Assembly: GCA_005400705.1 (NCBI GenBank)
Contig: GCA_005400705.1_4079.1
Source: Escherichia coli
GTDB taxonomy: Bacteria; Pseudomonadota; Gammaproteobacteria; Enterobacterales; Enterobacteriaceae
Direction: 5' to 3' (one strand)
Length of the DNA: 64,000 bases
The notes under the pieces are model-generated. The model was not told the DNA's origin. It worked only from the letters and a program-made list of their open reading frames with translations, and ran no database searches. Numbering within the stretch: position 1 is the stretch's first letter; each line of letters begins with the position of its first letter. The position numbers and the translations under genes were made by a program. This document shows positions 155 through 23,563 of this stretch, one piece after another.

Positions 155-165
155 GTACTAAATAA

Positions 166-197: not shown

Positions 198-202
198 AAG
201 TG

Positions 203-230
203 GGGACAACTTATAAAAATATGATATAAT
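203..230 (+). promoter_or_regulatory. sigma70-type early promoter (GGGACA-N16-TGaTATAAT)
   Basis: -35-like GGGACA 203-208, 16-nt spacer, extended -10 TGaTATAAT 222-230; same architecture recurs at 21207, 44179 and 49898. Confidence 0.55.
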
Positions 231-264
231 AGTTAATGTACCAATATACATGGAGAGTATTAAA

Positions 265-510
265 ATGGAACAAGAAAATAATCAAATTCAACTAACCCTT
301 CTAGACCTAATCAATGCTGCAAAAATCATGGAAGCTGCTGTTGCACGAAACACCTTTAAAGTTGAAGAACTTGTTGAGGTTGCTCCAGTTGTATCTAAAT
401 TTGTTTCTTTTGCAAATGTAGCTCTTGAAGATATTAAAGCACAAGAAGATGCAGCTAAAGAAGAAGCTGAATCACAAGATAGTGAAACTCAAGAAGATAA
501 AGGAGAATAA
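265..510 (+). CDS. small highly acidic early protein (hypothetical)
   Basis: ORF-track frame 250..510; start moved to ATG 265 because GGAGAG at 252-257 gives a 7-nt spacing; C-terminal third is Glu/Asp-rich. Confidence 0.6.
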   Translation: MEQENNQIQLTLLDLINAAKIMEAAVARNTFKVEELVEVAPVVSKFVSFANVALEDIKAQEDAAKEEAESQDSETQEDKGE

Positions 511-512
511 TT

Positions 513-1169: not shown

Positions 1170-1172
1170 AAT

Positions 1173-1766: not shown

Positions 1767-2695
1767 TGAAACAACTACAAGAACTATATCAAAAAATTCT
1801 AGATGAAGGCGTAGAAAGCGTTGACCGTACTGGTGTTGGAACAATCAAACTTATCGGTCAACAAATGCGTTTTGACCTTAAAGATGGTTTCCCAGCAGTG
1901 ACGACAAAACGTCTAGCTTGGAAAGCAATGACTTCAGAATTACTATGGTTTATTGAAGGTTCCCATGATGAGCGTCGCCTTTGTGAAATTTTGCATGGAA
2001 CTCGTGATACAGAAAAGAAAACTATTTGGACAGATAATTACCTAAATCAAGGCGTTGCTCTTGGTTATACTGATGGTGAGTTAGGTCCAGTGTATGGTAA
2101 GCAATGGCGTGAATGGGAAGATTATAAATTTAGTTCCAGTACTGAAGAAATTCAAGAATTAAAAGATAAAGGATACAAAGTTATCGATTATACTGGATCG
2201 CATGGTGTTGTTATGAAACGTACAACTGACCAATTACAGGAACTAATCAAAGGTATAAAGTCCGATCCATATGGTCGTCGCCATATTCTAAGTGCATGGA
2301 ACGTTGGTGAGCTTGATGATATGACGTTACCACCTTGTCATAGCTTTGTACAATTTTGTGTAGTACAAGGGAAACTAAGCTGCATTCTACATCAAAGATC
2401 CGCTGATCTATTTTTGGGAGTTCCATTTAATATCAGTAGTTATTCACTACTAACTCATATGATTGCACAAATTACTGGTTTAGATGTTGGTGAATTTATT
2501 TGGAATGGTGGTGATTGTCACATTTATAAAAACCACGTTGAACAAGTAAAAGAACAACTACAGCGAAAACCTCGTGAATTACCTGAATTGTGGCTTGATC
2601 CTACAATTACTAATATTGAAGATTTCACTATGGATTCTTTTAAATTAGTGAATTACAACCCAATGCCAACAATTAAAGCACCTATGGCTGTATAA
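1766..2695 (+). CDS. td: thymidylate synthase
   Basis: 309-aa product with canonical ThyA motifs including catalytic LPPCH (TLPPCHSFVQF) and a T4 Td-like N-terminus; uninterrupted reading frame. Confidence 0.95.
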   Translation: MKQLQELYQKILDEGVESVDRTGVGTIKLIGQQMRFDLKDGFPAVTTKRLAWKAMTSELLWFIEGSHDERRLCEILHGTRDTEKKTIWTDNYLNQGVALGYTDGELGPVYGKQWREWEDYKFSSSTEEIQELKDKGYKVIDYTGSHGVVMKRTTDQLQELIKGIKSDPYGRRHILSAWNVGELDDMTLPPCHSFVQFCVVQGKLSCILHQRSADLFLGVPFNISSYSLLTHMIAQITGLDVGEFIWNGGDCHIYKNHVEQVKEQLQRKPRELPELWLDPTITNIEDFTMDSFKLVNYNPMPTIKAPMAV

Positions 2696-2698
2696 ACG

Positions 2699-2730
2699 AA
2701 AAGGGAGAACTGATGTTCTCCCTTTTTTAT
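2699..2730. terminator. bidirectional intrinsic terminator between convergent td and fibre gene
   Basis: AAGGGAGAAC / GTTCTCCCTT inverted repeat with 4-nt loop, A-tract before and T-tract after. Confidence 0.75.
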
Positions 2731-4694
2731 TATCTAATTGTTACCAATGTTCTTCCGTCGAAACGTACATCAGGAGTTGAAGGTATACTAAACACTACGT
2801 TAGTGCCGTTAAACGTAACGCTATCGACCTCAACACGAGTATAGACACCAGGACTAACCTGTTCCTGTATCTCTGCTGTGACGATGTTTGAGGCTGTTAC
2901 AGTAAGGGTGTAGTAGTTACCACTTAATACCCAAGATGAAATTGTAAAAGCATCGGTTCTCACTGAACCTGAACCAATTGGAACCCATTGACCTTGAACT
3001 TTTTGCATTGAAGTACGCTCGGTATTGGAGTATGCAATCATACCATCAACGCCAACAGAGTTATCAATAGTAGCTAGTACTGGTAATTGGATACCATATC
3101 TATTAAAACGTGTTCTTATAGTTCCATTATCATAGATACTTACATCAGCATAATTACCCATTGATAGTTTTAAATCAGAACTAACTAATTGGATTGTACT
3201 TTGATTAGTAGTACTTTCTAATGTAATTATACCATTAGCTAATAGATTTATATTTTTAAATTTATTAGTTGTTCCATTGAAATTAGTGTTTGCTGTAAAC
3301 GTACTAACTCCATTAACTGTAATTGTATCAGATGCAGCATCGCCTAATGTAGTATTACCTTGAATGTTCAAATTACCACTAGCAGTGATATTACTAGCTG
3401 ATGTATCACCAGTCAATGTACTTGTACCATCAACCACAATATTACCATGAAACGCACTTTCACCATTTTTAAATTCAACTTGTACTTTATTCATTGAACT
3501 AAATGAAATAATATTACTACTAGCACTTAGTCCAACATTAGTATTGGTTGCATTATCAAATCTTAGTACTGGGGTTGATGCTGGGGTTGAAGTTGTTTGG
3601 TATAATGTTAATGTTGAATTATTAATTCTAATACGTTCAGTTCCAGCAGTACTGAAACCAATTGCATCATCTGCTGGATGAAACATACCAGTATTAGCGT
3701 CTGACCATTTTGCAGGATCATTACCTGGGTTATTGGTTGGATCAAATGGATTGTTATTAAATGTCAATGCTGGTGCTGCTGCACTACCATAGACCACACC
3801 AAAACGCCCTGAGCCGCTTGTTCCATCATTATACATGGAATCACCAGTTCTACGTAAACATTCAATCACAACGTTATCTATGGATGTTTGTACGGTTCCT
3901 GCGTTTGTTCTAAATTGACGATGGTTTGCAATCATTACTGTATTGTCATATAATACAGAAGCAGCAGAAATGCTTGTTCTTGACTGGCGTAGACGTATGT
4001 TTTTATCTTCAGTTATAATGATCCAATCACCATCTGATAGTGCGGTTTGGTTCATTGGAACGCCTGAAGCAAATGGTTTGGTTAAGTCAGCATCTGTTGC
4101 TAAATTTTTAAGACCATCATGACCAGTACTAGGAATAGATGCAGTAATAATTCTTGCAAAAGCGTATGTTACAAGTTTAGCACCAGATATATTTGGATTG
4201 GAGTCAACATAATATAAAATTTCAATCCAATTACCTTGACCAGTTGGGTTCGTAGGTGTAAATGTAACCGGACTTGTTTGTGGGTTATTTGCTTCAAAGT
4301 GTGCTTGTGCTGCATCCATAATACCACGAACAACATAATAATCACCATTTAGTGATGCTGCTGGTGCTGGTAGTGGTGTTTGTGCTAAAGGTGGATCAAT
4401 ATCATCTGGGATAGGATTGTATGTACCAACAAACTGTAAACCACTAGTTACTGAATCTGGTAATTGGGAAGTAAGAAGTTTACCATTTGCATCTAAGTTT
4501 GCAAAGCGGCGATATGCCATAGTACCATCTTCAAAATCCAGAACACCTTCAAATGATTTCCATTCCTTATTGTATCTAATCATCCCTGATCTTATTACAT
4601 CAGCGGTTTCTTTTGATGGTGCTTTCGGTAACTCTAAAAAAGATTTACTATCAATAATTACACCACCATCACCTCTAATTCGATTTATACTCAT
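2730..4694 (-). CDS. tail fibre / tailspike-like protein
   Basis: 654-aa ORF; C-terminal half is Ser/Thr/Asn/Gly-rich beta-strand repeat sequence typical of phage fibres; GAGG RBS; part of a multi-fibre cluster. Confidence 0.6.
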   Translation of the reverse strand: MSINRIRGDGGVIIDSKSFLELPKAPSKETADVIRSGMIRYNKEWKSFEGVLDFEDGTMAYRRFANLDANGKLLTSQLPDSVTSGLQFVGTYNPIPDDIDPPLAQTPLPAPAASLNGDYYVVRGIMDAAQAHFEANNPQTSPVTFTPTNPTGQGNWIEILYYVDSNPNISGAKLVTYAFARIITASIPSTGHDGLKNLATDADLTKPFASGVPMNQTALSDGDWIIITEDKNIRLRQSRTSISAASVLYDNTVMIANHRQFRTNAGTVQTSIDNVVIECLRRTGDSMYNDGTSGSGRFGVVYGSAAAPALTFNNNPFDPTNNPGNDPAKWSDANTGMFHPADDAIGFSTAGTERIRINNSTLTLYQTTSTPASTPVLRFDNATNTNVGLSASSNIISFSSMNKVQVEFKNGESAFHGNIVVDGTSTLTGDTSASNITASGNLNIQGNTTLGDAASDTITVNGVSTFTANTNFNGTTNKFKNINLLANGIITLESTTNQSTIQLVSSDLKLSMGNYADVSIYDNGTIRTRFNRYGIQLPVLATIDNSVGVDGMIAYSNTERTSMQKVQGQWVPIGSGSVRTDAFTISSWVLSGNYYTLTVTASNIVTAEIQEQVSPGVYTRVEVDSVTFNGTNVVFSIPSTPDVRFDGRTLVTIR

Positions 4695-4714
4695 TTAAAT
4701 ATTTCCTCAGAATA

Positions 4715-4722
4715 GATTTATA
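4715..4722 (-). promoter_or_regulatory. T4-type late promoter-like element (TATAAATC)
   Basis: Reverse complement of 4715-4722 is TATAAATC, followed by CTATTC, 20 nt upstream of the fibre gene ATG. Confidence 0.4.
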
Positions 4723-4741
4723 TGATGTATTTATTTTAGTT

Positions 4742-4772
4742 AAAAGAAAAGGCCAAGCATAGGCTTGACCTT
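4742..4772 (-). terminator. intrinsic terminator after the 259-aa gene
   Basis: On the minus strand a 10-bp stem AAGGUCAAGC / GCUUGGCCUU (one G-U pair) is followed by UUUCUUUU, directly 3' of the stop at 4779. Confidence 0.6.
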
Positions 4773-4778
4773 AAAAAA

Positions 4779-5558
4779 TTAACGTATACGTTCAGGAATA
4801 TCAACACCTTCATATACCCAAGTTGCAGCTTGTTGTGCCTTATAAATTGCATCAGGATCTAAATCATCAACTGCATCAATTGCTGCACACTGATTGTCAC
4901 ATTCTGTAAACAATTGCTCAATCATAGCAAAGGCTCCAGTGTATAGTTGTGTCATTTCAGTAGCAGATAATTTTACAATTGCGTCATCAAGAAAAATAGA
5001 AACACTTTCAGAACCTGAAGTGACTTGTGTATAGTAATTAAGAAGCATTTGACGACCAGACATATCAGTACTGTAACGATGACCATTGAACATATAACCA
5101 GAATTCATACGATTTGTACGTTCTGATATAGTTCTTGCTTTTAAATCAGCTTTAACATCTGCTATTGGCATATCAATATAATGATATGTTTTAAGAACAG
5201 TTAGTGCTTTATATTCTTCGGTAGCGTCTTCTAAAAATTCAACAATAGGTTGATTTTCATCTTTTAATTTAATAAACTCCAACGGTTGTTCAATAGCATT
5301 AACATTTCCAACATTTTTATACACTAACCACCAAAAACCTTCTTCTTTTCTAACAGCATCATTAGGTTCTACTGGGGAACCATCTTTACTTGAAATACCA
5401 TAAAGAGTTCTAATATCACTATAAAGATAACGATAGGTTTGTGGATCTTCTGGTGTTGCACCAGGACGTTCTTTAAGTCCTTTTACACCAATTGGATTGG
5501 AAATAATGTTTCCCAATTCATAATTTTCTTTTGAATTTCCTTTCACATATGTGAACAT
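4779..5558 (-). CDS. hypothetical protein between two fibre genes
   Basis: 259-aa ORF with GAGGTAG RBS; no family recognised. Confidence 0.55.
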   Translation of the reverse strand: MFTYVKGNSKENYELGNIISNPIGVKGLKERPGATPEDPQTYRYLYSDIRTLYGISSKDGSPVEPNDAVRKEEGFWWLVYKNVGNVNAIEQPLEFIKLKDENQPIVEFLEDATEEYKALTVLKTYHYIDMPIADVKADLKARTISERTNRMNSGYMFNGHRYSTDMSGRQMLLNYYTQVTSGSESVSIFLDDAIVKLSATEMTQLYTGAFAMIEQLFTECDNQCAAIDAVDDLDPDAIYKAQQAATWVYEGVDIPERIR

Positions 5559-5581
5559 ATAACTACCTCACTTGTTATGAT

Positions 5582-5606
5582 GGTGTCACCCAAAATGAGT
5601 GACACC
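5582..5606 (-). promoter_or_regulatory. perfect 8-bp inverted repeat (GGTGTCAC N9 GTGACACC) in an intergenic leader
   Basis: Lies between the stop of the giant fibre gene (5623) and the RBS/start of the 259-aa gene (5558); no adjacent U-tract, so not a canonical terminator. Confidence 0.4.
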
Positions 5607-5622
5607 TTTATTATTATAATTA

Positions 5623-8600
5623 TTAAGCAGTACGTTGTGCAATAAACATATCTGTTACTGGACTCACACCGTCATAAATGACTTGGTAGATAGTTACAGA
5701 GTTTGCAGTTTTGTTCAGTGTGCCATCAACAACCGCATAAGTACCATCAGTAGTAAAGTTTCTATTACCTGTTGCATCTTGTTTCACATAAATGTATACT
5801 GAAGATGCTTTACCACCACCGATTAGACCAGTGATTGGTGCTAGAGTGGTATCTTGATCTAGAGTGATAAAGTATACGTTGCTAGTACCGTCTGGGGTCC
5901 AAGTACCAGTTGGTGCGATAACAGAAGAAGTTACTTGATTAGGAATAACATCATATTTTTTAGTAGTTACTGTTGTTGTAGTTAGGTCAGCATTAGTAGT
6001 TGTCAATTGACCAGTTACAGTTACATCTTTATCAAATACTGCATTTTCTTTGAAAGAAGATGTTGCATTGACAGTTAATGTATCAGCAGCAGCGTCACCT
6101 AAAACAACACTACCATTTGCAGTCATTAAACCAGTAACAGTTAAAGTACCACCGATTGTTGCTGCTCCAGTAACAGATGCACTAGCAAGTGTTGCTGCAC
6201 CAGAAGTAGTAATGGTAGTTACTGAAGTTGCTGCTAGGGTTGCAGTACCTGTTGCAGAAATATCACCACCAACAGTTAGGTTACCAGAAGTAATTCCAAC
6301 GGTTCCAGTAATGTTAGCACCACTTGACATCGTTACTGCACCACCAAATGAACCAGTAGTAGTTACTTCAAGGGTGTTCCCTTTTAGTAGACCAGTTGCA
6401 GTAATACTTGTACCTGCGGTAATACTAGTACCAGCAGCAACACTGTTGGTTGCAGTTAATGATTTAACAGCCACGTCAGAGTTTGCTTGGTTTAGTGTTG
6501 CGTTTAGTAGACCAGTTACTGTAAAGTTACCGTTGTTAACTACGTTACCATTGATTGTTAAGTTGTTGTTTTGTGAACCAACATCACCAATAGTTGCTGA
6601 TTTGGAAATCAACTCTGCACCAGAAGTAATGTTACCCGCTGCACTAATAGTGTCAGCCGCAACAACTGCATAAGGTTCAATTGTTTGACCACTAACGTCA
6701 ATATCAGCGTTGATACCACCATCTACACGCAAGGAGCCTGCAATGTAAGTATTAGGGAAAATCTGAACTGTCTCTGGTTGATCACCAATTTTAGTACCGA
6801 TAATAACATCAGAACCAGTTTTAACTGCACCAGAGGTTGTTAGTGAACCTAAAGTTGTAGCACCAGTTACACCTAATGTTCCACCAATTGTTGCGTTATT
6901 GGTAACTGCTAATGCAGCACCTTCACCATTAAGAGCGATTGATGGAGCAGATACTGCACCAGTTACGCCTAATGTGCCACCAATTGTTGCGTTGCCATCT
7001 GAATGTAGAGTTGTAGCTACAGAAAGACTGTTAGCAACTACATCAGTACTAGCTAAATCCAATGCACCTGGGGTTAATGTACCAGTAATGTTAACATTAT
7101 TACCAAAGGTTGCTGCACCAGTCACATCTAGTGTAGTACTAAATGTACCAGAGGTTGCAGAGATTGCACCTGAATCTAGTGATCCAACAGTTGCTTTCCC
7201 AGTTACACCTAAAGTTCCACCAACAGTTCCATTTGTGGTTACATCCAATGTACCAGTACTTAGTTCTTGTGCGGTTACCTTACCGGATGCAGTAACAGTT
7301 GAAGTGGAAACGCCACCAGTTAGAGTACTAGCACCAGTAACACTTAATGTGGTTGCAGCAGTTACGCTATTTACGCTAAGATCAGCACCGGATAAGTCCA
7401 AACCACCTTCAGGAACAAATACACCCTTAACAGTTAGTTTTTGTACTGTACTATCACCTGTTACATCCAAGGTAGAAGCAGTTAAACCACCATTCATACT
7501 TGCTGCACCAGTAACACCTAGTGTAGTGGTTACAGTAGCACTATTAAGTGTTGAACTACCAGAAATATTAGCACTAGGAGCAGTAATAGTTCCAGAATCA
7601 ACTTGTATACCACCTGCAACAACCTGAATTCCACCAGCATTAACTGTTAGTTTACCAGCAGTATTCAATGTATTTGAAACTGTTGTTGCACCAGTTAAAG
7701 TTGTAGTACCAGTTACACCTAAGTTACCAGAAATAGATGGACTACCTGTAATATTACCAGTAGTTAGTATCAAATCAGTACCTACGGTAGTGGAGCCAGT
7801 ACTTTCTAGTGTCACACCAACGATGTTTGCAGAACTTAGGTTAATAGTACCATCAACAGTTAAGTTACCTTGAACGGTTGCATCACCTAGAGAAGTTAAT
7901 GTCTTCACAGACACATCAGTTGTGCTAAGATCAATAACACCCGCAGTTAGTGTTCCAGATACTGCTAAATTACCAGTAATCGCGGTATTTTTAGTAATGG
8001 ATACATTTTCTGCCGCTGAAGTAATAGAACCAACAGTAAGTACACCACCAACAGTTGCGTTATTAGTTACATTTAGAGCAGTTCCAACACCAGATAGTGT
8101 TGCTGACCCACCAGTAATTGCACCTGAGATTGAAGCTGTTGCTGCTGAAACATCACCAGAAACTACTGCATTTGTTGCATTTAGAGCAGACACTGTAACT
8201 TCAGTACTTTGAACTTTAGGTAGAACGTTGATACCTTCTGCACTACTAACTGTAATAATACCAGTACTTGTTAGAGATTTAACAGATACATCAGCACCAC
8301 TTAAATCAACTGTACCAGAAACAACAAGATCTCCACCAATATTTGCTCCAGCGGTAGTAGTAATGGATTTTGCACTTACATCAGTTGTGCTCAAATCAAT
8401 TGCACCTGGTGTTACTGTACCAGAAACTGTTAGGTCACCAGTAATAGATGTATTATTGGAAATAGATACACCATCAACGTTACTAATTGTTGGGGTTTCT
8501 ACAGAAACTGCTTTAACTTTACCTGAAGAAGTTACGTCAGCTACGGTAGATGCACCAGTAACATTCAAATTAGTAATATTTGCAGTTGTTGAACCAAGGG

Positions 8601-11148
8601 TTGCAATAGTTGCATCAGTACTTTGAAGTTTAGGTAGAACACTACTAATTGTGGATTCATTACTAACAATTGCACCAGTACTAGTTAAAGATTTGACAGT
8701 AACATCAGCCGTAGTAAGATCTACTGTACCATTAACAGTTAGGTTACCACCAATAGTTGCACCAGCAGTAGTAGTAATGGATTTAGCATTAACATCAGTT
8801 GTTGCTAGATCGATAGAGCCTGGAATAACTGCACCAGTAACAGTTAGGTCACCAGTTACATTTGTATTATTGGAAATAGTGACACCACTTGCATTTGAAA
8901 TGGTTGGGGTAACCAACGATGCAGTTGTAGTTTCACCAGTTACAGTTAAAGTTGACCCAACTAGAACAGATGAGCTTGAGTAAATTGTACCCAAATTAGC
9001 AGATCCGGTAACAGTTATATCATCAGCATTAACAGTAGTTGCCGTTATGGTAGTACTATTAAGTACTGGAAGTACGTTAGCATTAACAAGATCATTACTT
9101 TTAACAATACCAGAAGTAGTTAATGATTTAACATTAAGGTCGGCTGCTGATAAATCAAAAGAGCCTTGAACTACTAAATCACCACCAATAGTTGCACCAG
9201 CAGTAGTAGTGATTGATTTAGCATTAATATCGGTAGTGCTCAAGTCTAGAGAACCAACAGTTAAGCTACCAGTAATATCAACATTTTCTGTAAAGTTAGT
9301 ATTACCACTAATAGTTGGTGCAGTCAGAGTTGTTGCACTAATATTAGTACCGTTAATTGTTTGCCCACTTACAGTTCCACTCGCAGTGATAGTAGGGGCC
9401 GTTACTTCAGTAGATGCACTAATTGTTGGTGCAGATACAGAAGTTGTACCAGTAATAGAACCAGAACTTACTGAACCAGCGGATAATGCACCAGAAAGAG
9501 TTGCAGTTGTACCAGCAATATCACCAGTAACAGTTAGTTTAGCACCCACGGTAGTGTTACCAGTACTTTCAAGTGTTGCACCTTTAATATTTGCTGCCGC
9601 GACAACAGAATTAGGTGTTAGATCCTGCCCACTAACATCAACAGTTAGTCCAGTTACTGTTCCAGTAAATTCAACATCATTAAGAATTGCTTTACCACCA
9701 ACTTGTAGGAATGGTGTACCTGGAGCTTGTGTTTCGTTACCAGTAATAGTTAGGTAATCTAGTTTGTTTAGACCGTTACCAGTAATACCATAAGTGGAAA
9801 GAGAAGCGTTACCGAAAGTTGCTGTTTTAAGAACGTTCAATGTAGAAGGAGAAACGACTTCTGATTGAACTTCGTTAGGTAGAATAACTGTTGGGCGTTG
9901 ACCAGGTGCAGTATATCCAAAACCTAGTTTCACTGCCGCATCTTGACTATTTTGGCCTAAGCTGATAGATTTAAAGGATGCAGTACTGTTATAACCAGTA
10001 ATATTAGAACCAAGAGTAACACCACCAACTAATGAAGTTGCACCAGTAACGTTCAATGATACTGCATTAATATCGTCTAGTTGGAATGATCCACCAAGAA
10101 GACCAGAAACATTAATGTTATTAAAATTAGCAGTTCCAGTACTTTCAATATTTGGAATAGTTGCAGTTCCGGTTACTTCAAAGTCAGCAACTTTGGTTTT
10201 GCCTTTTTGAACTTCTAATAGTGGTGTGTCTGGAGATTGTGTGTTGTTACCAGAAACTGTTAGATAATCCAATTTGTTTAGACCATTACCAGTAATACCA
10301 TAAGAAGATAATGACGCATTACCAAAAGAAGCAGAGGTCAATACTGTCAAGTTTGCAGGTGACATTAGCTCGGACTGAATTTCGTTTTGTAGAATAACAG
10401 TTGGGCGTTTACCAGGAGCAGTGTAAGGGAAGCTTAATCTGAAGGTTTGTGATTCAGAGTTAGAACCAATACGAATGTCTTTAAAAGTAGCAGTACTGTT
10501 AATACCAGTTACGTTAGCACCGAAAGTCACTGCACCTTGTTGGTTAGATGCACCAGAAACGTTCAATGTTACTGCATTTAAGTCAGAAAGATTAAACTGA
10601 CCACCTAATGTACCACTAATGGTTACATCTTTAAAAGTAGCAGTTCCAGTACTACTAATATCGGTTGTACTTACATTAGTAATTTCTGCGGAATTAGCAG
10701 TAATTTTATCAAATGCAGAAGTAGTACCAACATCAGCAGTAATATTACCTTTAAATGCTGTTGTTTCAGCAACTTCTAAGTTTTTAACTTTAGTTGCTTG
10801 TAGAGTGGTTGTACCAGCAGTTTGTGTGAAATCAGAACCAACTGATACAGTACCGTTAAAGGTAGCGTTTGAATTAATTGTTGCTGTATCAGACCCGACA
10901 ACTGCACTACCGATTGTAGTATTACCCTCAACACCAAGACCACCAGAAAGTGTTGCTTTGCCACCAACATCTAAAGTAGATGTAATGTTGGCAGTTGATG
11001 ATTCAATGGCAGTAAAAGTTGCATTTGCAAAAGTTACAGTACCATTTACAGTTAGGTTATTATTGAAAACAGCATTTCCTTTGACTAAAAGATCCTTACC
11101 AACCGTACCAGCACCAGTAATATCTAAGTCAGTTTTTATTGAGTACAT
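5623..11148 (-). CDS. giant fibrous tail protein (long tail fibre / adhesin-like, 1841 aa)
   Basis: Very long ORF rich in Thr/Ser/Gly/Val/Asn with internal tandem protein repeats; GGAGGG RBS upstream of ATG 11148. Confidence 0.7.
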   Translation of the reverse strand: MYSIKTDLDITGAGTVGKDLLVKGNAVFNNNLTVNGTVTFANATFTAIESSTANITSTLDVGGKATLSGGLGVEGNTTIGSAVVGSDTATINSNATFNGTVSVGSDFTQTAGTTTLQATKVKNLEVAETTAFKGNITADVGTTSAFDKITANSAEITNVSTTDISSTGTATFKDVTISGTLGGQFNLSDLNAVTLNVSGASNQQGAVTFGANVTGINSTATFKDIRIGSNSESQTFRLSFPYTAPGKRPTVILQNEIQSELMSPANLTVLTSASFGNASLSSYGITGNGLNKLDYLTVSGNNTQSPDTPLLEVQKGKTKVADFEVTGTATIPNIESTGTANFNNINVSGLLGGSFQLDDINAVSLNVTGATSLVGGVTLGSNITGYNSTASFKSISLGQNSQDAAVKLGFGYTAPGQRPTVILPNEVQSEVVSPSTLNVLKTATFGNASLSTYGITGNGLNKLDYLTITGNETQAPGTPFLQVGGKAILNDVEFTGTVTGLTVDVSGQDLTPNSVVAAANIKGATLESTGNTTVGAKLTVTGDIAGTTATLSGALSAGSVSSGSITGTTSVSAPTISASTEVTAPTITASGTVSGQTINGTNISATTLTAPTISGNTNFTENVDITGSLTVGSLDLSTTDINAKSITTTAGATIGGDLVVQGSFDLSAADLNVKSLTTSGIVKSNDLVNANVLPVLNSTTITATTVNADDITVTGSANLGTIYSSSSVLVGSTLTVTGETTTASLVTPTISNASGVTISNNTNVTGDLTVTGAVIPGSIDLATTDVNAKSITTTAGATIGGNLTVNGTVDLTTADVTVKSLTSTGAIVSNESTISSVLPKLQSTDATIATLGSTTANITNLNVTGASTVADVTSSGKVKAVSVETPTISNVDGVSISNNTSITGDLTVSGTVTPGAIDLSTTDVSAKSITTTAGANIGGDLVVSGTVDLSGADVSVKSLTSTGIITVSSAEGINVLPKVQSTEVTVSALNATNAVVSGDVSAATASISGAITGGSATLSGVGTALNVTNNATVGGVLTVGSITSAAENVSITKNTAITGNLAVSGTLTAGVIDLSTTDVSVKTLTSLGDATVQGNLTVDGTINLSSANIVGVTLESTGSTTVGTDLILTTGNITGSPSISGNLGVTGTTTLTGATTVSNTLNTAGKLTVNAGGIQVVAGGIQVDSGTITAPSANISGSSTLNSATVTTTLGVTGAASMNGGLTASTLDVTGDSTVQKLTVKGVFVPEGGLDLSGADLSVNSVTAATTLSVTGASTLTGGVSTSTVTASGKVTAQELSTGTLDVTTNGTVGGTLGVTGKATVGSLDSGAISATSGTFSTTLDVTGAATFGNNVNITGTLTPGALDLASTDVVANSLSVATTLHSDGNATIGGTLGVTGAVSAPSIALNGEGAALAVTNNATIGGTLGVTGATTLGSLTTSGAVKTGSDVIIGTKIGDQPETVQIFPNTYIAGSLRVDGGINADIDVSGQTIEPYAVVAADTISAAGNITSGAELISKSATIGDVGSQNNNLTINGNVVNNGNFTVTGLLNATLNQANSDVAVKSLTATNSVAAGTSITAGTSITATGLLKGNTLEVTTTGSFGGAVTMSSGANITGTVGITSGNLTVGGDISATGTATLAATSVTTITTSGAATLASASVTGAATIGGTLTVTGLMTANGSVVLGDAAADTLTVNATSSFKENAVFDKDVTVTGQLTTTNADLTTTTVTTKKYDVIPNQVTSSVIAPTGTWTPDGTSNVYFITLDQDTTLAPITGLIGGGKASSVYIYVKQDATGNRNFTTDGTYAVVDGTLNKTANSVTIYQVIYDGVSPVTDMFIAQRTA
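7900..9300. repeat. intragenic tandem repeats (about 4 copies, ~420 bp / ~140 aa each)
   Basis: Near-identical DNA blocks around 8340-8410, 8760-8825 and 9190-9260 (GCACCAGC(G/A)GTAGTAGT(A/G)AT(G/T)GATTT...), with a more diverged copy near 7930; encode the repeated unit IDLSTTDVSAKSITTTAGA-IGGDLVV..VDLS.ADV.VKSLTSTG; boundaries approximate. Confidence 0.65.
9636..10656. repeat. intragenic tandem duplication (2 copies, ~510 bp / ~170 aa each)
   Basis: DNA near 10250-10310 repeats near 9730-9790; protein segments from about residue 165 to 335 and 335 to 505 are near-identical; boundaries approximate. Confidence 0.6.
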
Positions 11149-11244: not shown

Positions 11245-11285
11245 ATAAAAAACCAGACTTATTTAGAACAAGTCTGGTTCTTTTT
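11245..11285 (-). terminator. intrinsic terminator after the 298-aa fibre gene
   Basis: 9-bp stem ACCAGACTT / AAGTCTGGT flanked by an A-tract and a T-tract, immediately 3' of the stop at 11288. Confidence 0.65.
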
Positions 11286-11287
11286 TA

Positions 11288-12184
11288 TTACTTACCAGAG
11301 ATGACAATCTTACCACTGAAAGAAATATCAGAAGTGAAGATTACATCACCAGTACTACTAATTTGTGTATCAGTCACTACCAATTCAAATGGAGATGACG
11401 CAACACTCCCAGGTGTTTTATTTGCATAAATTGAAATATACAAATTATCTGGTGTTTGATTGTGTTCAGATGCAGGAATAGTGATTGTAAAATCACCAGC
11501 ACTAGAAACCCAATCTGCTTGGTTTACCAATTTACTATAAGGTACTGTCATTGTTGTTGCTCCTATAATGTTTACTTTAACACTTGCATAATCTGTGATT
11601 TGACCAATCACATCAATTGTTATATCCCCAATACCACTAACTGTTACTGTGGTTTGGAATACTGATTCCAATGCAACATTACCTGGGTCACCTTGTAGTT
11701 GGATCATAATATCAGAACCTCTACCATGAACTGATTCTGGTAGTGTGTAAGTATAATGATCAGTAGTATCTGGTACTAATGTAAATGCAGAAACAGGAAC
11801 TATTTCAGTAGTTACATATGAGCTATCAGTTCCAGGTGAGCTACCTTTAAATGGTTTCCAAATACCAAGATCTTTAATATAAATTTGAAGAACATTAGTA
11901 CTATCAACCAAAAAGTAAACGTCACCATCTAGACCAATAGAATCGGATGGTGCTGTTGTTCCACGTAAGATACCAGAACTACCACCACCACTGTGTGCGT
12001 TTAAATATCCCAATGTAACCAAGTGTGTGTTTGCAGTTGGTTCACCTGCTGAAATTGGAAGAAGTTGTGTTCCTGAGTAGTTTTGAATTTGCACAACACT
12101 ACCATTTGTGGTAATCTGTGCACCATTCTTCCCAAGAATGAAGGACTTCTTCATGGTTCCTTCTAAATTAGAAAAAACTGCCAT
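11288..12184 (-). CDS. tail fibre / receptor-binding protein with shared N-terminal anchor
   Basis: 298 aa; N-terminus MAVFSNLEGTMKKSFILGKNG is near-identical to the N-terminus of the adjacent 713-aa tailspike. Confidence 0.6.
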   Translation of the reverse strand: MAVFSNLEGTMKKSFILGKNGAQITTNGSVVQIQNYSGTQLLPISAGEPTANTHLVTLGYLNAHSGGGSSGILRGTTAPSDSIGLDGDVYFLVDSTNVLQIYIKDLGIWKPFKGSSPGTDSSYVTTEIVPVSAFTLVPDTTDHYTYTLPESVHGRGSDIMIQLQGDPGNVALESVFQTTVTVSGIGDITIDVIGQITDYASVKVNIIGATTMTVPYSKLVNQADWVSSAGDFTITIPASEHNQTPDNLYISIYANKTPGSVASSPFELVVTDTQISSTGDVIFTSDISFSGKIVISGK

Positions 12185-12200
12185 TTTAATATAATCTCCT

Positions 12201-14342
12201 TTATGGTAGGGTTATGTAAGTTACGGGTTGGGCGGCTTTTAATGCTGCACCAGCGGCAGTTGCTGTTATGATAGGATCTGCAATATCAATTCTATATACG
12301 TTGTTTACAACATACACTGCACGAGTTATATACGTTCTCAAATCACCACCATTTTCACCAGCACCAGATATAATAATCTCAGTACCAGCAGCTTTTGCAT
12401 ATTGGTTTTCACCCCATGACACACCCAATGCTTCTATATATGTTTGTCCTACTACGGTTTGTCTAATAGTGTCGTATTTTCCGAAAAAAGAACCACCAAC
12501 GGTCACAATATATTTTCCACCAGATTGCTTATGTATAATAGTACCTTCTGGGAAATAACGACCACCCGGAAAAGTGTCGTAGGGAATATAATATTGTTCA
12601 ACTACTGGTATCAGTACTGGGCCACGGTGACCTGTACCATCGATTGCAGTTGTAACTTTAAAGTTATTAGATGATTGGTCTATTCTGTCTACATACATTT
12701 TAGAAAAACTATATTTTGAAACATTACAATCATCTTGAACAACACAGTTAGTCCAATTAGTATAAGTATATTTAGAGCGAGTATAGATACCACCACCTTC
12801 GCCTTCTGTAGAGAGATGTTGACCAATTACGTCTAATTCTTTAGTTCTAATATCACTAAATTTAGATGATGATGGTAAACCACGCCAAAGAATTTTAGAA
12901 CAGGTGATATTGCTCAATTCTGTATTATTTAACCAATTGTCAGAACCGGAAGTATAAACAAGTATAGAAGACTCTGGAATATAGAGATTAGAAATTTTAA
13001 AGTTTCTAGGTGGTCCAGCAAAACGACCAGAAGTTACACCCCAGTTTATTGAAACCATTCTATTTGTGATAGAAGGATCATTAAGCAAATGACCAGTCAA
13101 CCCATCAATAATGAATTCTTTAGAACCATAAGTTATAACACCAGCAGTGGTTAATCCAGTACCGACAGAAACTAAAGATGATGGATAAACTTCATTATTA
13201 AGTATTTTAAAGTCCATGCCTAATTCAACGTGGATACATTGTCTAACATTATATAGTCTGTTATTTTTAATAACAAAGTTTCTGACATATTGTGTATCTG
13301 GTGCATCTAAACCATAAGGACCAGAACCAGCAACACCAATACCAATACCCCAGTTTGAAAGTGGGATTGGAGCGTTAGAACCATCAACGTTTTCAATTAC
13401 GTTTCCTTCAATCACAAAACCATCAGGATAATGTGAGTTAATTACGTTTAGTTCAATTGCATCACCATAGATATCATGTATGTGGTTATATGAATATCTA
13501 CCAACCTTCATTTTCTCACCAGTACCTTGTTGAAGAACACCATACTTACATTGGGTCATTTCATTAAAGCAAAAATCTATTGTTCCTGGTTGTGTCATAC
13601 CTTGCATTAAAAATGCAGCAGTACTTGTGATGTTTATAAATTTATTAAAATAAAACTTACCATCTCCACCGAAGAATTTTAAATAACATCCAGTAAGTGT
13701 TGCAAATTGTATTTGGGAATTAATAACGGATACCATAGTACCACCGTTACCAGTAATAGTTCCCCCAAACCAAGTTACATCTTCCAGGTATATTGCAGTT
13801 TTGATACGGTAATTACCACCAGCCTGAATTTGGATTTTATTTTCTTTAGCATAAGCAGCACATAAATTTACAGCAGCAGTGTCATCAGTTTCGCCATCAC
13901 CTTTAGCACCAAATTCTTCTGGTGTTATATAAAACTGGGCCTGTTGAACTGTACCTCCAGTAATAAGTCCGATGAAATCGCCACCATTTTTACTGGATAG
14001 AACTTTTTTATTAATGTATAATGATTTTACCCATGTACCATTGCTTTTTGCAAAAATATCAACAATACCATCTTCATCAATTTGAAAATACGTATTATTG
14101 TTCTTTCCTATATCATCGGTAGGTGGTACAACACCAAATAATGCATTAGGGTTATCTTCAAGATATTTTACGTTAACTGCTGAATTAGGATCAGATGAAG
14201 TTCCTACCTTCAGTGGTAGGAACTGTTCTCCTAGATAATCTTTTATAGAAACTGAATCATTGATAAAATTTATTGAAGCACCTTTTTTCCCCAATATGAA
14301 TTTGGGCTGCATAGTTCCTTCAAAATTAGAAAATACTGCCAT
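12201..14342 (-). CDS. tailspike with right-handed beta-helix (pectate-lyase-like putative depolymerase)
   Basis: 713 aa; shared N-terminal anchor MAVFSNFEGTMQPKFILGKKG; GDGETDDTAAVNLCAAYAKENKIQIQAGGNYRI resembles the Pectate_lyase_3 N-cap; followed by parallel beta-helix-like repeats. Confidence 0.65.
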   Translation of the reverse strand: MAVFSNFEGTMQPKFILGKKGASINFINDSVSIKDYLGEQFLPLKVGTSSDPNSAVNVKYLEDNPNALFGVVPPTDDIGKNNNTYFQIDEDGIVDIFAKSNGTWVKSLYINKKVLSSKNGGDFIGLITGGTVQQAQFYITPEEFGAKGDGETDDTAAVNLCAAYAKENKIQIQAGGNYRIKTAIYLEDVTWFGGTITGNGGTMVSVINSQIQFATLTGCYLKFFGGDGKFYFNKFINITSTAAFLMQGMTQPGTIDFCFNEMTQCKYGVLQQGTGEKMKVGRYSYNHIHDIYGDAIELNVINSHYPDGFVIEGNVIENVDGSNAPIPLSNWGIGIGVAGSGPYGLDAPDTQYVRNFVIKNNRLYNVRQCIHVELGMDFKILNNEVYPSSLVSVGTGLTTAGVITYGSKEFIIDGLTGHLLNDPSITNRMVSINWGVTSGRFAGPPRNFKISNLYIPESSILVYTSGSDNWLNNTELSNITCSKILWRGLPSSSKFSDIRTKELDVIGQHLSTEGEGGGIYTRSKYTYTNWTNCVVQDDCNVSKYSFSKMYVDRIDQSSNNFKVTTAIDGTGHRGPVLIPVVEQYYIPYDTFPGGRYFPEGTIIHKQSGGKYIVTVGGSFFGKYDTIRQTVVGQTYIEALGVSWGENQYAKAAGTEIIISGAGENGGDLRTYITRAVYVVNNVYRIDIADPIITATAAGAALKAAQPVTYITLP

Positions 14343-14356
14343 TATGACATCCTCCC

Positions 14357-15520
14357 TTAAATATTATCTTGAATCGGTTGGATAGGAGCTTGCCATGAAA
14401 GAGTACAAATAATTTCCATTTTTCCATAAGGACTGTTGTTAACAGAATCGTTGAATACACATGAAATAATTTCATCAACATCGGATGCTGCATGATTAGT
14501 TTCATTAACAATAAAACGCATCTGACGATTGATATCAAAGTATGAAGTTGGTGCAATTACAGTTCCACCAATATCTTCTTGTGCTTCACCACCAAAACGT
14601 ACAAACATATCAGTTACAGGAAGAGAATAAGGTTGTATAACGTTTACATCAATATTAGAAACTACATATCCAGCAGGACACGTACCAATAACTAATAGTG
14701 CGTTAGTCCATGAGCTATCTATTGTATTTCTAATAGAAATTGTATCTTTACCTGGTGCACCTGGTTCGCCTTGTATACCTTGAATACCTTGCTGACCTTC
14801 TTTACCACGGAATAGAATACCATCACTCCACTCTTTTGAAGGAGGGGTTGTTGTAGTTACTTCATCAACATAATATAGTTTTCCATCAGTGTTGTTATAA
14901 AAACAATAATCAACTGGAAGATTTTCAATACTTGGAAATTGATCACCACTGCTATCAATATGGAAACGACCACGCGGACCTTGTTCACCACGGAAAGGGA
15001 TACCATCACTCCAAGTGGCAGTTACACTTTGATAGAAATAAAGCTTACCATCTTGTGTATTATAAAATGTATAGTTATTAAAAAGACCAGTTGTTGGGAA
15101 AGAAGTCCCAGCACTATCAATGTGGAACGGCTTACCCGCTTCACCAGTATCACCTTTACCAAACTCAACACTAATCCATGTACTTGTCGGATCTTGTGCA
15201 TCGTTTGATTTAAAGTATAGAGTACTGGTATTGTTAGCCAAGCTTAAGTAGCACCACCCAAGTGGTTCACCAACTTTAAATTGTTCGGAAGGAATTTCAA
15301 AACCAATCTCATTAGGATAAAAGTTTTTACCATTCTCGCCATTCTGTCCTACAACAAGACCTAAATCTTGAATTGTGTTATCTGCATAGGTTACAATTAA
15401 ATGCCCAGCACCATTAATAACTAGACTTTTGATGCCGGAGTTATTACATGAACCACTGGACCCATTGTTAAATGAAATTGTCATAATATTTCCCTTGTAT
15501 GAGTTAATGTCATATACCAA
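14357..15520 (-). CDS. tail fibre protein with collagen-like Gly-X-Y tract and internal repeats
   Basis: 387 aa; GKEGQQGIQGIQGEPGAPGKD is an uninterrupted Gly-X-Y run; repeated units GE.G.PFHIDS.G..FP ... DGKLY. Confidence 0.6.
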   Translation of the reverse strand: MVYDINSYKGNIMTISFNNGSSGSCNNSGIKSLVINGAGHLIVTYADNTIQDLGLVVGQNGENGKNFYPNEIGFEIPSEQFKVGEPLGWCYLSLANNTSTLYFKSNDAQDPTSTWISVEFGKGDTGEAGKPFHIDSAGTSFPTTGLFNNYTFYNTQDGKLYFYQSVTATWSDGIPFRGEQGPRGRFHIDSSGDQFPSIENLPVDYCFYNNTDGKLYYVDEVTTTTPPSKEWSDGILFRGKEGQQGIQGIQGEPGAPGKDTISIRNTIDSSWTNALLVIGTCPAGYVVSNIDVNVIQPYSLPVTDMFVRFGGEAQEDIGGTVIAPTSYFDINRQMRFIVNETNHAASDVDEIISCVFNDSVNNSPYGKMEIICTLSWQAPIQPIQDNI

Positions 15521-18330: not shown

Positions 18331-19674
18331 TTATTTGTCAGTGAAAGTTATTTTCCAATACCCCTGACGATACACAGGCATGATACTTTTATGCCATTTA
18401 AATTTGTCATTATATCTATAATAACCATTGTCTTCTTTATTATAAATGTAATTTCGTACAGTAGATGGATCAATTAATTGTGCACCATCATTTGTAATTT
18501 TAAACAAATAATTTGATGGGATTTCGGTTTCTTTATAAATGATGTTATGTATACTGTTATTTACATAATATTGTTCAGGTAATGCATTTGAAAGTACTGA
18601 ATCTTTCTGCACAAACCCATGTATAGTGTAATCAACAGTATAATTTGTATTATCAAGCTGTACTATAATTTTGTTGGCATCTTCATTTTCACCATAGGAC
18701 GCTATATGACCTTTTAGTGGGTTGTCTTCTTCAATAGATTGTTGAAATTTAATCCCTACTTTTTTATCATCAAAATTTGGTTCTAGATATTTAAGATATT
18801 TTTCCCATGAATATATTCCACCGTTGGGAGAAACCGCTGATAGCGATTGGCTAACCAAGGTAAGTTGGTATGTATCAGGTAAATTATACTTGGAATTAGT
18901 AATTTCTTCAACTTTAATGCATAAGTTCTTTGGTGTAAAAACATCTGTTATTATATCTGAATAATTTCCCATTTCAAAATCAAATTCGTCACGAGCACCT
19001 TTAATATTTGTAGTAATCTGTTGAATTAATTTTGGTTTTTCAACAATAGCTGGCAAAGAAAACCATATTGTCGTTTCAAATGTTAAAACCATTATATCCA
19101 AATCTGGGTCAGTTCCTTGTGGAAAACCACGAGTAGAAAACTGACAATCTATTAGTTCTACATCACTAAGCGATGTCCAATCTAACGGGTTATCAGATAA
19201 TTGAAGTTGTATACTAGGTGCAAACAAAGTTGAGATTTGTTCGAATAATTCCATTTTAGTTTGAGTTTGAGTTACCCAAATATTCAAATCAAACGTAAAA
19301 GTCCAAGGTACTGGGTTATGTCTTACAATTTTGTATTGTGTGTCAAGTTCTTTTGTGTACTCATTAATAGCAGGGGTCTTGTTAGACCCCATTACTATAG
19401 TTTCGTTGGCATTAGAACGAATATTTTTACGATCCAACTTTAGTTGATTAACACTTATGGTCATTATAGGTGCTGATGGGAGAACATTTTCACTATTCCC
19501 ATTTATAATTGCTGCTGCCATTCTTGAAATATCGGCATAGCGACATGGAACCTTTTTGTATTTTGGGTTTCCATTAGCATCAACACCATTTTGTACTTGA
19601 AATTCACCAAAAACTCTGATAAGATGTTTCAGTACTCTGCGAAATTGACCGTCATAATAATAATCTATTTTCAT
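18331..19674 (-). CDS. virion structural protein (baseplate/tail-associated, unassigned)
   Basis: 447-aa ORF translationally coupled (4-bp overlap) to the upstream structural ORF; no motif recognised. Confidence 0.45.
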   Translation of the reverse strand: MKIDYYYDGQFRRVLKHLIRVFGEFQVQNGVDANGNPKYKKVPCRYADISRMAAAIINGNSENVLPSAPIMTISVNQLKLDRKNIRSNANETIVMGSNKTPAINEYTKELDTQYKIVRHNPVPWTFTFDLNIWVTQTQTKMELFEQISTLFAPSIQLQLSDNPLDWTSLSDVELIDCQFSTRGFPQGTDPDLDIMVLTFETTIWFSLPAIVEKPKLIQQITTNIKGARDEFDFEMGNYSDIITDVFTPKNLCIKVEEITNSKYNLPDTYQLTLVSQSLSAVSPNGGIYSWEKYLKYLEPNFDDKKVGIKFQQSIEEDNPLKGHIASYGENEDANKIIVQLDNTNYTVDYTIHGFVQKDSVLSNALPEQYYVNNSIHNIIYKETEIPSNYLFKITNDGAQLIDPSTVRNYIYNKEDNGYYRYNDKFKWHKSIMPVYRQGYWKITFTDK

Positions 19675-21234: not shown

Positions 21235-21274
21235 GTTTATTAATTAGAGTGACGTGAATCACATAGGAGAATAC

Positions 21275-23563
21275 ATGAATCTTACTCAATTGTTCAAAAA
21301 AAGCGACGAACTGGCAACATCTCTAGGTCATACATTCTTGACTATTGACCACGTAAGTGCCACAGTACTGACTATTGATAGCATCAAGAACGTATTTGAA
21401 GATATGAACATTGATGCAGACAAACTGCACAACCGCCTAATGAACTATCTTAAAAATACAACAGTTCCACATGCACCAAAAAGTGTTAAAGATGAAGACG
21501 CGAATCGCACTTCACTTCTAGTGAATCGCGTTGTACATGAGCTTTCAAAAAAATCAGTTATTGAACAACTAAAAAGTGATGATTTTTCGATTGATGCATA
21601 TTTTGTTCTATTCGAATGTCTGTCTTTCCCTAACACAGCACTAGAAGCTGCGTTAAAAGAAGAAGGTGTTAGCTGTACTGAAGCTGCACGTGCATTACAG
21701 AAACACGTTGAGTCACTTGATAAGGGTATCAACTTACAAAGTATTAATGACGAACCGATTGGAGATAAAAAAGTGGCCCAACAGCAGCAATCATCTAAAC
21801 AAAAAGGTTTGGAAGACTATACAACGAATCTAACTGCTCTTGCAAAAGAAGGCAAACTAGATCCTATGATTGGTCGCCAGAAAGAATTGTCTGCATTGAT
21901 TGAGACTCTTGCTCGCAAAACCAAAAAGAATGCTATTCTCACTGGTGAAGCTGGTGTAGGTAAAACACAAATCATCGACGGGCTTGCACAAGCTATTGCT
22001 GATGGTAACGTACCTGAACACTTGAAAGACGTTGAAATTCTTTCACTAAATGTTGGTGCATTGACTGCTGGTACTAAGTATCGTGGTGAGTTTGAAGAAC
22101 GCATCGACAATTTGCTAAAAGAACTAAAGAAACGTGAAAATACTATTGTTTTCATTGATGAAATTCATATTATGGTTGGGGCTGGTTCCGCAAGTAATGG
22201 TTCTATGGACATGAGCAATATGCTTAAGCCAGCACTTTCACGTGGTGAGATTCGTGTAATTGGTGCAACAACATATGATGAATATCGTAAAAATATCGAG
22301 AAAGATAGTGCATTAACTCGTCGTTTTATGAAAATTGACGTAGTTGAGCCGACAATTGATGAAACTCGTGCAATTGTTAATGGTTTGAAACCAACGTATG
22401 AAAAATTCCATAATGTTGAGTTCACATCTGATGCAATGGATGCTGTAATTTCTCTCAGTGATAAATTCCTGAAGAATAAGCACTTCCCAGATAAAGCAAT
22501 TGATCTAATGGACGCTGCTGCTGCAAAAGTTCGTTCACGTGACAACAATAGTAAGCTTATTACTGCCAATTTGATTCAAGAAGTTGTTGCTGGTATTGCC
22601 AATTTGGATATCAACGTGGTTGCATGTACTGAAAGTGATCGTATGCGTAATCTACCAGATGCACTACGCTCACGTGTATACGGTCAAGAGGAAGCTATTC
22701 AAAAATTAGTTGATAACGTGATGGTAGCTCGTGCAGGACTGCGTGACAAATCTAGTGTTCAGGGTGCATTTATGTTTGTTGGACCATCTGGCACTGGTAA
22801 AACAGAAATTACCAAAGCATTAGCAGATGCAACTGGTGCGGAACTGATTCGCTTTGATATGTCAGAATTTTCTCAAGAACATACTGTTTCTAAACTAATT
22901 GGTTCACCTCCAGGTTATGTTGGTCATGATTCTGGTAACGGTTTACTGTTGGATAAAATTGAGCAGTTCCCTAATGCAGTACTGTTACTTGATGAAATTG
23001 AAAAAGCAGATCGTAAAGTCCTACTAACCTTCCTACAGGTTTTGGATGAAGGTCGCCTGACTGGTTCACAAGGTAAAACTGTATATTTTAATAACGTAAC
23101 TGTTATTATGACTACAAACCTTGGTGCAGCAGATTCAACGAAGCGTAGTATTGGTATGAGCGGTAGTGATACTGCACAAGACAAGGCAATTAAAGCATTC
23201 TTGCCACCAGAGTTCATTAACCGTATTGATAGTATCGTTACGTTTAAAGACCTAAGCAGTGAAGCTATTGACAGCATCATTGATAAGTTCATGGGCAGTT
23301 TGAATGAACAAGTCAAAGACCGCAATGTTAAAGTTACATTGACAAAAGCTGCACGTGAATGGCTTGCGAAAAATGGGGTAAAAGTTGGCATGGGTGCACG
23401 TCCAATGAAACGTACCATTGAACAAAACATTCGTGTACCACTAGCTAAAGAAATGTTGTGTGGTTCACTTGTTAATGGTGGAAACATTACATTTGATGTT
23501 ATTGATGGTAAAATCGGTATTAAACCGAAACGTTCCAAAGCTGTAGATAAAGCACTGGCATAA
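21275..23563 (+). CDS. clpA: ClpA-type two-ring AAA+ unfoldase (Clp ATPase)
   Basis: Clp N-domain; D1 Walker [10 protein letters not shown]1 pore loop [10 protein letters not shown]1 Walker B IVFIDEIH; D2 Walker [10 protein letters not shown]2 pore loop GYVGHD, D2 Walker [10 protein letters not shown]; long colinear similarity to E. coli ClpA as recalled from memory; start set at ATG 21275 (AGGAGA RBS) rather than the GTG at 21254. Confidence 0.9.

Follow-up and report, generated by a model that had tools for sequence, protein, structure and literature searches.

The locus described here raises the question of what three neighbouring fibre-like genes contribute to the virion of a jumbo phage: whether each encodes a receptor binder with its own exchangeable tip, or whether one enzyme is carried among conserved structural parts. 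The genes lie between positions 11288 and 15520 of a stretch of 64,000 nucleotides (nt) deposited as Escherichia coli DNA (contig GCA_005400705.1_4079.1 of assembly GCA_005400705.1), the whole of which is referred to as the window. About 4.8 kb around them are 98.5% identical in nucleotide sequence to Escherichia phages SHEFM2K, SP27 and phAPEC6, and 98.1-98.2% identical to PBECO4 and 121Q (98.1% for 121Q). Judged by its sequence, the window comes from an E. coli jumbo myophage of the 121Q/PBECO4 type, an Asteriusvirus, and belongs to the RaK2-like group. Asteriusvirus is a genus of jumbo myophages of ~350 kb within that group.

An earlier note on this DNA had described a receptor-binding cassette of three fibre or spike genes at 11288-15520. 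Three tightly packed open reading frames (ORFs), all on the minus strand, are indeed found exactly at those positions, except that the last one in coordinate order, which is the first to be transcribed and is called gene 1 here, is shorter than was stated. Its mechanical ORF (14357-15520) opens with TTG and encodes 387 amino acids (aa), whereas the true start is almost certainly the ATG at 15484, giving 375 aa, because an AAGGGA ribosome-binding site occurs at 15491-15496 and the homologues agree in length and start (they measure 368-380 aa, and those annotated in 121Q, phAPEC6, A4 and Turkey5 begin at the corresponding Met). The genes and their modules are as follows.

14357-15484, minus strand: gene 1, conserved virion 'tail protein' of 375 aa (phrog_13565; virion mass spectrometry of homologues)
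14744-14806, minus strand: collagen-like tract GKEGQQGIQGIQGEPGAPGKD, residues 227-247 of the 375-aa protein (shuffle test, homologue alignment)
12201-14342, minus strand: gene 2, colanidase tailspike of 713 aa, assigned by homology (PDB 6E0V, phrog_6117) as an adaptor plus a beta-helix glycosidase body
14028-14342, minus strand: adaptor of the colanidase, residues 1-105, made of a plug (~1-65, MAVFSNFEGTM...FILGKKG...) and one copy of a tail-fibre repeat of ~42 aa
12207-14057, minus strand: predicted catalytic and receptor-binding body of the colanidase, residues 96-712 (homology to the crystallised part of phi92 gp150)
11288-12184, minus strand: gene 3, conserved virion protein of 298 aa (phrog_10468; homologue CBB_227 in virions)
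11849-12184, minus strand: adaptor of gene 3, residues 1-112, of the same type as that of the colanidase

The reading favoured here, to which a probability of about 0.7 is given, is that of a minus-strand fibre operon in which genes 1 and 3 would provide conserved parts of the virion and gene 2 would provide a modular colanidase tailspike mounted on the adaptor. The feature is an already-annotated tail-fibre operon and ordinary phage biology rather than a new system: the three proteins are 99-100% identical to deposited ones, and the middle gene already appears in more than 30 GenBank records under the name of colanidase tailspike or colanic-acid-degrading protein. The family of N-terminal plugs is the one mildly new element.

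The colanidase gene

Residues 96-712 of the product of the middle gene match PDB entries 6E0V/6E0W (gp150 of phage phi92) with E = 1.2e-236 in phmmer; BLASTP aligns them with gp150 residues 189-801 at 57% identity over 619 columns, of which 8 are gapped, and phrog_6117 is matched with E = 3.7e-264. The phi92 record annotates gp150 as 'colanidase tailspike', and the homologous gp40 of phage J8-65 is likewise annotated as a tailspike, with mention of an 'NST1 colanidase'. The colanic-acid-degrading enzyme of Kim et al. 2015 reportedly belongs to phage NST1 and not to PBECO4. Hydrolysis of the beta-1,4 Glc-Fuc bond of colanic acid has been reported for phi92 gp150 (Xu 2025, as cited in a phi92 structure paper of 2026, PMC13450770), and 6E0V is treated as a beta-helix hydrolase or colanidase in two further articles (PMC10190282; PMC11126041). 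The earlier proposal of a pectate-lyase-like depolymerase is therefore borne out by these homologies and made more specific: according to its sequence, the 713-aa protein is a depolymerase-type tailspike, namely a colanidase orthologous to phi92 gp150, and the enzyme very probably digests the colanic-acid slime layer.

Conservation within the body agrees with this assignment. The acidic residues D290, D294, E297, E312, E373, D413, D504 and D686 are invariant in a seven-protein alignment of the window protein and six relatives of 31-85% identity, and are candidate catalytic residues. All of them are kept in the 713-aa protein, and D290, D294 and E297 belong to an HDIxGDAIELN block that it has in common with phi92 gp150. 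The Pfam pectate-lyase-like family PF12708 is matched by residues 143-250 with E = 4.7e-5 and 23.7 bits, under the gathering threshold of 27 bits.

Residues 262-459 match the NCBIfam models of E. coli WcaM (TIGR04004) with E = 2e-26, at 92.6 bits against an equivalog cut-off of 794.6. Only this central core is common to the two proteins and the phage protein is not a WcaM orthologue, but the core is probably the origin of the label 'colanic acid biosynthesis protein' in several GenBank phage records; on the sequence comparison such labels on phage colanidase genes are mis-annotations. The WcaM-like core also hints at a common ancestry of the host protein and the phage colanidases.

The N-terminal part of the protein has a different distribution from that of the body. 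Residues 1-104 match only RaK2-like jumbo phages, while the colanidase body occurs in other phages, including Justusliebigvirus (57% identity), Seunavirus and related myophages (~37%) and Bonnellvirus-type podophages (~31%); the 713-aa protein is therefore a chimera of a jumbo-phage adaptor and a colanidase body. Both phi92 and the window phage are E. coli myophages with several fibres or spikes, and their colanidases share the whole enzymatic body together with the block and the family-invariant acidic residues mentioned above. They differ in that phi92 is a Justusliebigvirus of 148 kb and not a jumbo phage of ~350 kb, and in that gp150 (804 aa) opens with 188 residues unrelated to the window protein, where the latter has a RaK2-type adaptor of ~95-105 residues. 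A relationship between the gp150 N-terminus and the adaptor was considered and rejected for lack of any similarity.

In the Asteriusvirus vB_Ec-M-J the annotation divides the colanidase between two neighbouring 'colanidase tailspike' ORFs, 360 and 351 aa long (positions 8959-11101 of the extracted locus), the first matching residues 1-359 of the window protein and the second residues 363-712; this arrangement would reflect either a real split of the gene or a frameshift or sequencing error.

The N-terminal adaptor and proposed attachment to the virion

The 298-aa and 713-aa proteins had been noted earlier to begin with a near-identical segment. The similarity is significant on alignment (BLASTP, E = 7e-20) and extends over ~105 residues, but near-identity is confined to the very start, where 17 of the first 22 residues coincide, and falls to 39% over the 109 aligned columns. 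The coding sequences follow the same gradient, with ~30 of the first 33 nt identical and about half of the remainder of the adaptor. Among the window's ORFs of 50 aa or more, only these two contain the module.

A profile built from the two window adaptors was compared with 1.84 billion representative proteins and found 168 of them at E<=1e-3. Every match that covers position 1 of the profile begins at residue 1 of its own protein, and these matches comprise adaptor-only proteins (113-141 aa), 298-type proteins (281-294 aa), one colanidase of 723 aa, and proteins in which the plug precedes other bodies. In the latter the first ~65-73 adaptor residues stand ahead of a pectate-lyase-like beta-helix with a Peptidase_S74 domain (P0024, 780 aa, its body ~33% identical to KP32 gp37), a Beta_helix body (P0026, 705 aa) or BNR/sialidase-like bodies (P0047, P0055 and P0086, 1218-1366 aa). 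More than 100 further proteins match positions ~65-113 only, usually in 2-13 copies each and often in collagen-like proteins; from its distribution this part of the adaptor is a widespread tail-fibre repeat. The specific element is therefore the first ~65 residues, the plug, headed by MA[VI][FY]SN[LF]xGT[MF]...F.LGK.G..., for which no match was found in Pfam, NCBIfam or the PDB.

Within the plug, residues 1-11 are the best conserved and are nevertheless disordered in the monomer model produced by AlphaFold2 (AF2), and they resemble a docking peptide, on the analogy of the dual receptor-binding protein (RBP) systems of podophages infecting Klebsiella (KP32, K11 and KP34). In these phages, according to PMC13352976, a short conserved N-terminal peptide is likewise found on unrelated distal domains, and RBP2's conserved docking peptide attaches to a branching domain in RBP1. 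The KP32-type arrangement offers what seems the best functional analogy for MA(V/I)FSNxEGTM, with the difference that its peptide has no sequence relationship to the window adaptor.

The adaptor, and especially these 11 residues, would seat a trimeric spike in a conserved dock of the fibre or baseplate network, one similar in kind to the dock that serves the 298-aa protein. The enzyme would then cut through the capsule of colanic acid (M antigen) on E. coli cells that are mucoid or stressed, and this clearing would let the long fibres and the baseplate reach their receptors.

Several observations weigh against the modular tailspike. The single-sequence AF2 model of the 713-aa protein has a predicted local distance difference test (pLDDT) score of 37.5 and is unusable, so that the beta-helix rests on homology to the 6E0V crystal structure; a literature search found no enzymatic assay of any Asteriusvirus colanidase; and the similarity shared at residues ~65-113 is in part that of a generic fibre repeat present in many unrelated proteins. 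In addition, PHROG 6117 is filed under 'moron, auxiliary metabolic gene and host takeover' and not under tail, and the 713-aa protein is absent from the published virion proteome table of phAPEC6. These last two points would suit a soluble late enzyme, freed at lysis, that thins the capsule or biofilm around neighbouring cells and whose N-terminal similarity has no docking role, and free forms of phage depolymerases are known. Such a soluble enzyme is improbable, considering that the gene is enclosed by virion-protein genes in an operon of the fibre cluster, that its N-terminal module is common to a virion-detected protein and always N-terminal in its relatives, and that the homologues phi92 gp150 and J8-65 gp40 are annotated as tailspikes. 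The phAPEC6 table is also uninformative on this point. The phAPEC6 record (MK817115.1; positions 7150-10355 of the extracted locus) has no coding sequence for the colanidase or the 298-aa protein, and its tags jump from gp253 to gp256; since gp254 and gp255 are missing from the deposited annotation, absence from the proteome says little, and the survey may not have been able to report either protein.

The two adaptors of the window represent separate lineages. Colanidase-type adaptors are 57-68% identical to each other and 34-44% identical to 298-type adaptors, which in turn are 52-85% identical across genera. A recent duplication of the neighbour's adaptor to give that of the colanidase is rejected by this pattern, from which it follows that the two lineages are paralogues of long standing and that the colanidase had already been added in the ancestor of the genus.

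A broader reading can be put forward tentatively and with less than even confidence: that the plug defines an undescribed family which mounts interchangeable distal modules on one conserved docking site in RaK2-like and uncultured phages, these modules being Ig-like domains, colanidase, other beta-helices with an S74 chaperone, and BNR/sialidase-like propellers. Within it, the free 115-aa plug of Alcyoneusvirus (see below) would perhaps cap the docking site. If true, the plug family would offer a handle that can be transferred in order to retarget jumbo phages.

The 117-aa adaptor returned four fragments from an index of 5.8 billion proteins, for whose word index the query is too short; an IMG/VR scan with the adaptor alignment returned 298-type loci only; and tblastn with P0047 found no isolate phage that carries it. 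Two Logan metagenome contigs have a plug-bearing BNR/sialidase-like gene (1218-1226 aa) as the first in an array of 4-5 large fibre-like genes, one of which encodes a Peptidase_S74 chaperone domain; the contigs share conserved upstream sequence, and both begin ~200 bp upstream of the plug gene, too close to show co-occurrence with a homologue of the 375-aa protein.

Because the junction near residues 96-105 is clean, the body could be produced by itself as a reagent against capsules or biofilms, and the adaptor could be tried as a handle for exchanging spikes on jumbo phages.

A genus-specific insertion between two conserved genes

The genes on either side of the colanidase behave differently from it. 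The 375-aa protein corresponds to 121Q gp574, phAPEC6 gp253 and CBB_228 and matches phrog_13565 ('tail protein') with E = 3.8e-221. Its homologues have been detected in virions by mass spectrometry, phAPEC6 gp253 (40.99 kDa) with 65.6% coverage and CBB_228 with 13 peptides. It consists of three tandem modules of ~55 aa, each led by three Gly-X-Y triplets, followed by a tract of seven triplets and a conserved C-terminal domain of ~125 aa. The collagen-like tract that had been reported in this protein is confirmed: a Gly-X-Y run of at least seven triplets arose in 0 of 20000 shuffles, and G227, G230, G239 and G242 are invariant in 14 homologues, where the tract measures 5-7 triplets. The match to Pfam Collagen (PF01391) reaches 16.2 bits against a cut-off of 27.2, and in sequence terms the tract is real but short and falls below the threshold of that family. 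No relative was found in the PDB by sequence profile. The protein is probably a trimeric short fibre or stalk, as its sequence suggests.

At residues ~105-225 the tandem modules contain a W/Y-rich motif, Y.FYN..DGKLY...W. A likeness of the modules to WW domains or bulb-type lectins was not significant (E 0.09-1.5), and their identity with the repeat of the adaptor was rejected (E ~1.8-2.9 with the hidden Markov model of the repeat; probability 0.1% when the family profiles were compared with hhalign).

The 298-aa protein corresponds to 121Q gp572 and CBB_227, the latter detected in CBB virions by mass spectrometry, and matches phrog_10468 with E = 5.5e-100. A total of 73 homologues at 41-100% identity were found, 72 of which span the whole query; identity is 64-100% within Asteriusvirus and 45-53% over the full length in CBB, GAP32, fHe-Yen9-04, Serratia BF, Erwinia phages, Munch, 7t3 and XaC1. 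The AF2 model, for which 48 homologues were used (pLDDT 80), has an N-terminal beta unit (residues 12-45), a disordered Gly-rich segment (46-67), a beta-hairpin repeat (70-113) and two beta-sandwiches (~120-210 and ~215-298). The beta-sandwiches are immunoglobulin (Ig)-like, an enzyme domain is lacking, and a sequence profile found no relative in the PDB. The protein may serve as a small adhesin or as a structural component.

A fold search with this model matched a viral protein of 375 aa in BFVD (A0A3Q9R6T7; 205 columns, 29% identity, E = 6.7e-11). The match is not explained by the 375-aa protein of the window, which has no profile similarity to the 298-aa family.

In Klebsiella phages of the genus Alcyoneusvirus (RaK2, K64-1 and others) the 298-aa protein is reduced to its first ~112 residues, which make up a protein of 115 aa. 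In RaK2 this protein corresponds to ORF061w (positions 8001-8348 of the extracted locus), and 10 further records of Klebsiella phages give similar matches; it is ~60% identical to the Asteriusvirus adaptor. From this protein it seems that the adaptor has a role of its own even without any distal domain.

Comparison of the locus among RaK2-like phages clarifies the position of the colanidase. Eighteen IMG/VR loci carrying the adaptor were found, which were taken to include those of 121Q, GAP32, Serratia BF, CBB and RaK2. All 18 have genes of 366, 202 and 165 aa on one strand and, on the other, the tail-protein gene followed by an anchor-bearing gene. Between the tail-protein gene and the 298-type gene a colanidase is present in the 121Q locus only and in none of the 17 loci from outside Asteriusvirus. 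The long-fibre gene comes next in 15 of these 17, RaK2 and one short contig having no fibre match there; one of the 18 loci ends inside the gene, and two of the loci read stop short of the long fibre. The annotated records of CBB, RaK2 and Munch agree, with the same layout and no colanidase at the homologous locus, and all Asteriusviruses examined (121Q, A4, Turkey5 and vB_Ec-M-J) have the colanidase at the same position. The colanidase is a genus-specific insertion between two conserved genes.

The conserved genes follow the group and not the host. Both are found in RaK2-like genera whose hosts are Escherichia, Pectobacterium, Cronobacter, Yersinia, Erwinia, Salmonella, Klebsiella and Xanthomonas, the 375-aa protein at 58-80% identity and the 298-aa protein at ~45-85% (47-71% in its C-terminal part). 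Since they are conserved across genera whatever the host, neither is probably a variable receptor binder; in terms of sequence, both behave as conserved core virion components of the whole RaK2-like group.

These comparisons bear directly on the model of the earlier note, in which all three proteins are independent receptor binders of a branched multi-receptor apparatus, each distal domain being directed to a different host structure. An apparatus with six fibre-like proteins fits the electron microscopy of phAPEC6, in whose particles six fibres at the baseplate and several rings of additional fibres are seen, and, by analogy, the model of the related RaK2, which builds its long fibres from nine proteins, seven of them depolymerases; the adhesin-like Ig domains that end the 298-aa protein and the collagen-like stalk of the 375-aa protein would suit it as well. 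The model is unlikely all the same, because identities of ~45-85% over eight host genera, C-termini included, are atypical for specificity tips, because Alcyoneusvirus retains only the adaptor part of the 298-aa protein, and because the gene that varies within the genus is the long fibre. The description of the locus as three receptor-binding genes consequently goes too far for the 375-aa and 298-aa proteins, the second of which has no enzyme domain either.

The idea of swappable distal domains is retained only in part. Within Asteriusvirus the operon is stable (80-98% nucleotide identity), and exchange on the adaptor is seen only at a deeper scale, in the presence or absence of the colanidase between genera and in the metagenomic proteins that have the same N-terminus on other bodies. 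The colanidase body is 65-88% identical in A4 and Turkey5 and 84-89% in the two halves of vB_Ec-M-J. The adjacent long fibre, at only 37-60% amino acid identity within the genus, is the variable element, and host-range variation in Asteriusvirus seems, from these identities, to sit there. The comparison thereby separates a conserved scaffold (375 aa and 298 aa) from the carriers of host range (presence or absence of the colanidase, and the long fibre). In the clade of BF17 and vB_Ec-M-J three fibre genes (positions 1-7926 of the extracted locus) stand in place of the single 1841-aa gene; two of their products share with it the N-terminal ~1000 residues (54-60% identity) and one its C-terminal ~570 (61%).

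With respect to the better-known Alcyoneusvirus systems (RaK2, phiK64-1, phiKp24), the window phage belongs to the same broad group, the surrounding tail genes are syntenic, and the mounting of depolymerase spikes on a fibre scaffold through N-terminal domains would be a common principle, one predicted from sequence for the window phage. The RaK2 fibre proteins gp526-gp534 are instead encoded at another locus and have N-terminal domains described as CBA120 TSP-like; at the homologous locus RaK2 has no depolymerase but the adaptor-only 115-aa protein; and the window phage has one depolymerase at the locus, whereas RaK2-type systems have seven or more.

Operon layout and surrounding genes

The three genes are separated by gaps of 13-16 nt, and each is preceded by a Shine-Dalgarno-like site of the GGAGG type. 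In 121Q the corresponding genes are annotated as gp574 'tail protein', gp573 'colanic acid degradation' and gp572 'virion structural protein'. From this layout the three look like one minus-strand transcription unit within the tail-fibre gene cluster, the end of which is probably marked by a hairpin recognised by consensus. A promoter scan returned no more sites than were found in shuffled sequence. Downstream of gene 3 the following features occur.

11247-11283, minus strand: terminator-like hairpin with a 17-pair stem and a T-rich tail (T-run), directly past the stop of gene 3 (consensus match only)
5623-11148, minus strand: long tail fibre gene of 1841 aa, immediately downstream of gene 3 (121Q gp571 'tail fiber protein')

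The phAPEC6 homologue of the long fibre, gp256, was detected by mass spectrometry. Regarding the other fibre genes claimed for the window, the proteins of 1841 and 541 aa do match tail-fibre PHROGs, but the 654-aa protein has as its sole PHROG match a family of unknown function and belongs to no Pfam family.

No tRNA genes were found in the 64-kb window. The regions 23599-33600, 33650-37111, 18331-19674 and 21254-23563 contain typical tail genes of the RaK2 group, plus one protease gene, which is ClpA-like and lies on the opposite strand. A giant protein of 3333 aa was assigned to phAPEC6 gp245 (a virion protein of 382 kDa) and a baseplate wedge protein of 1153 aa to phAPEC6 gp244 (131 kDa), in both cases by matching protein size, and a T4 gp15-like sheath stabiliser is also encoded (Pfam, E = 2.3e-20).

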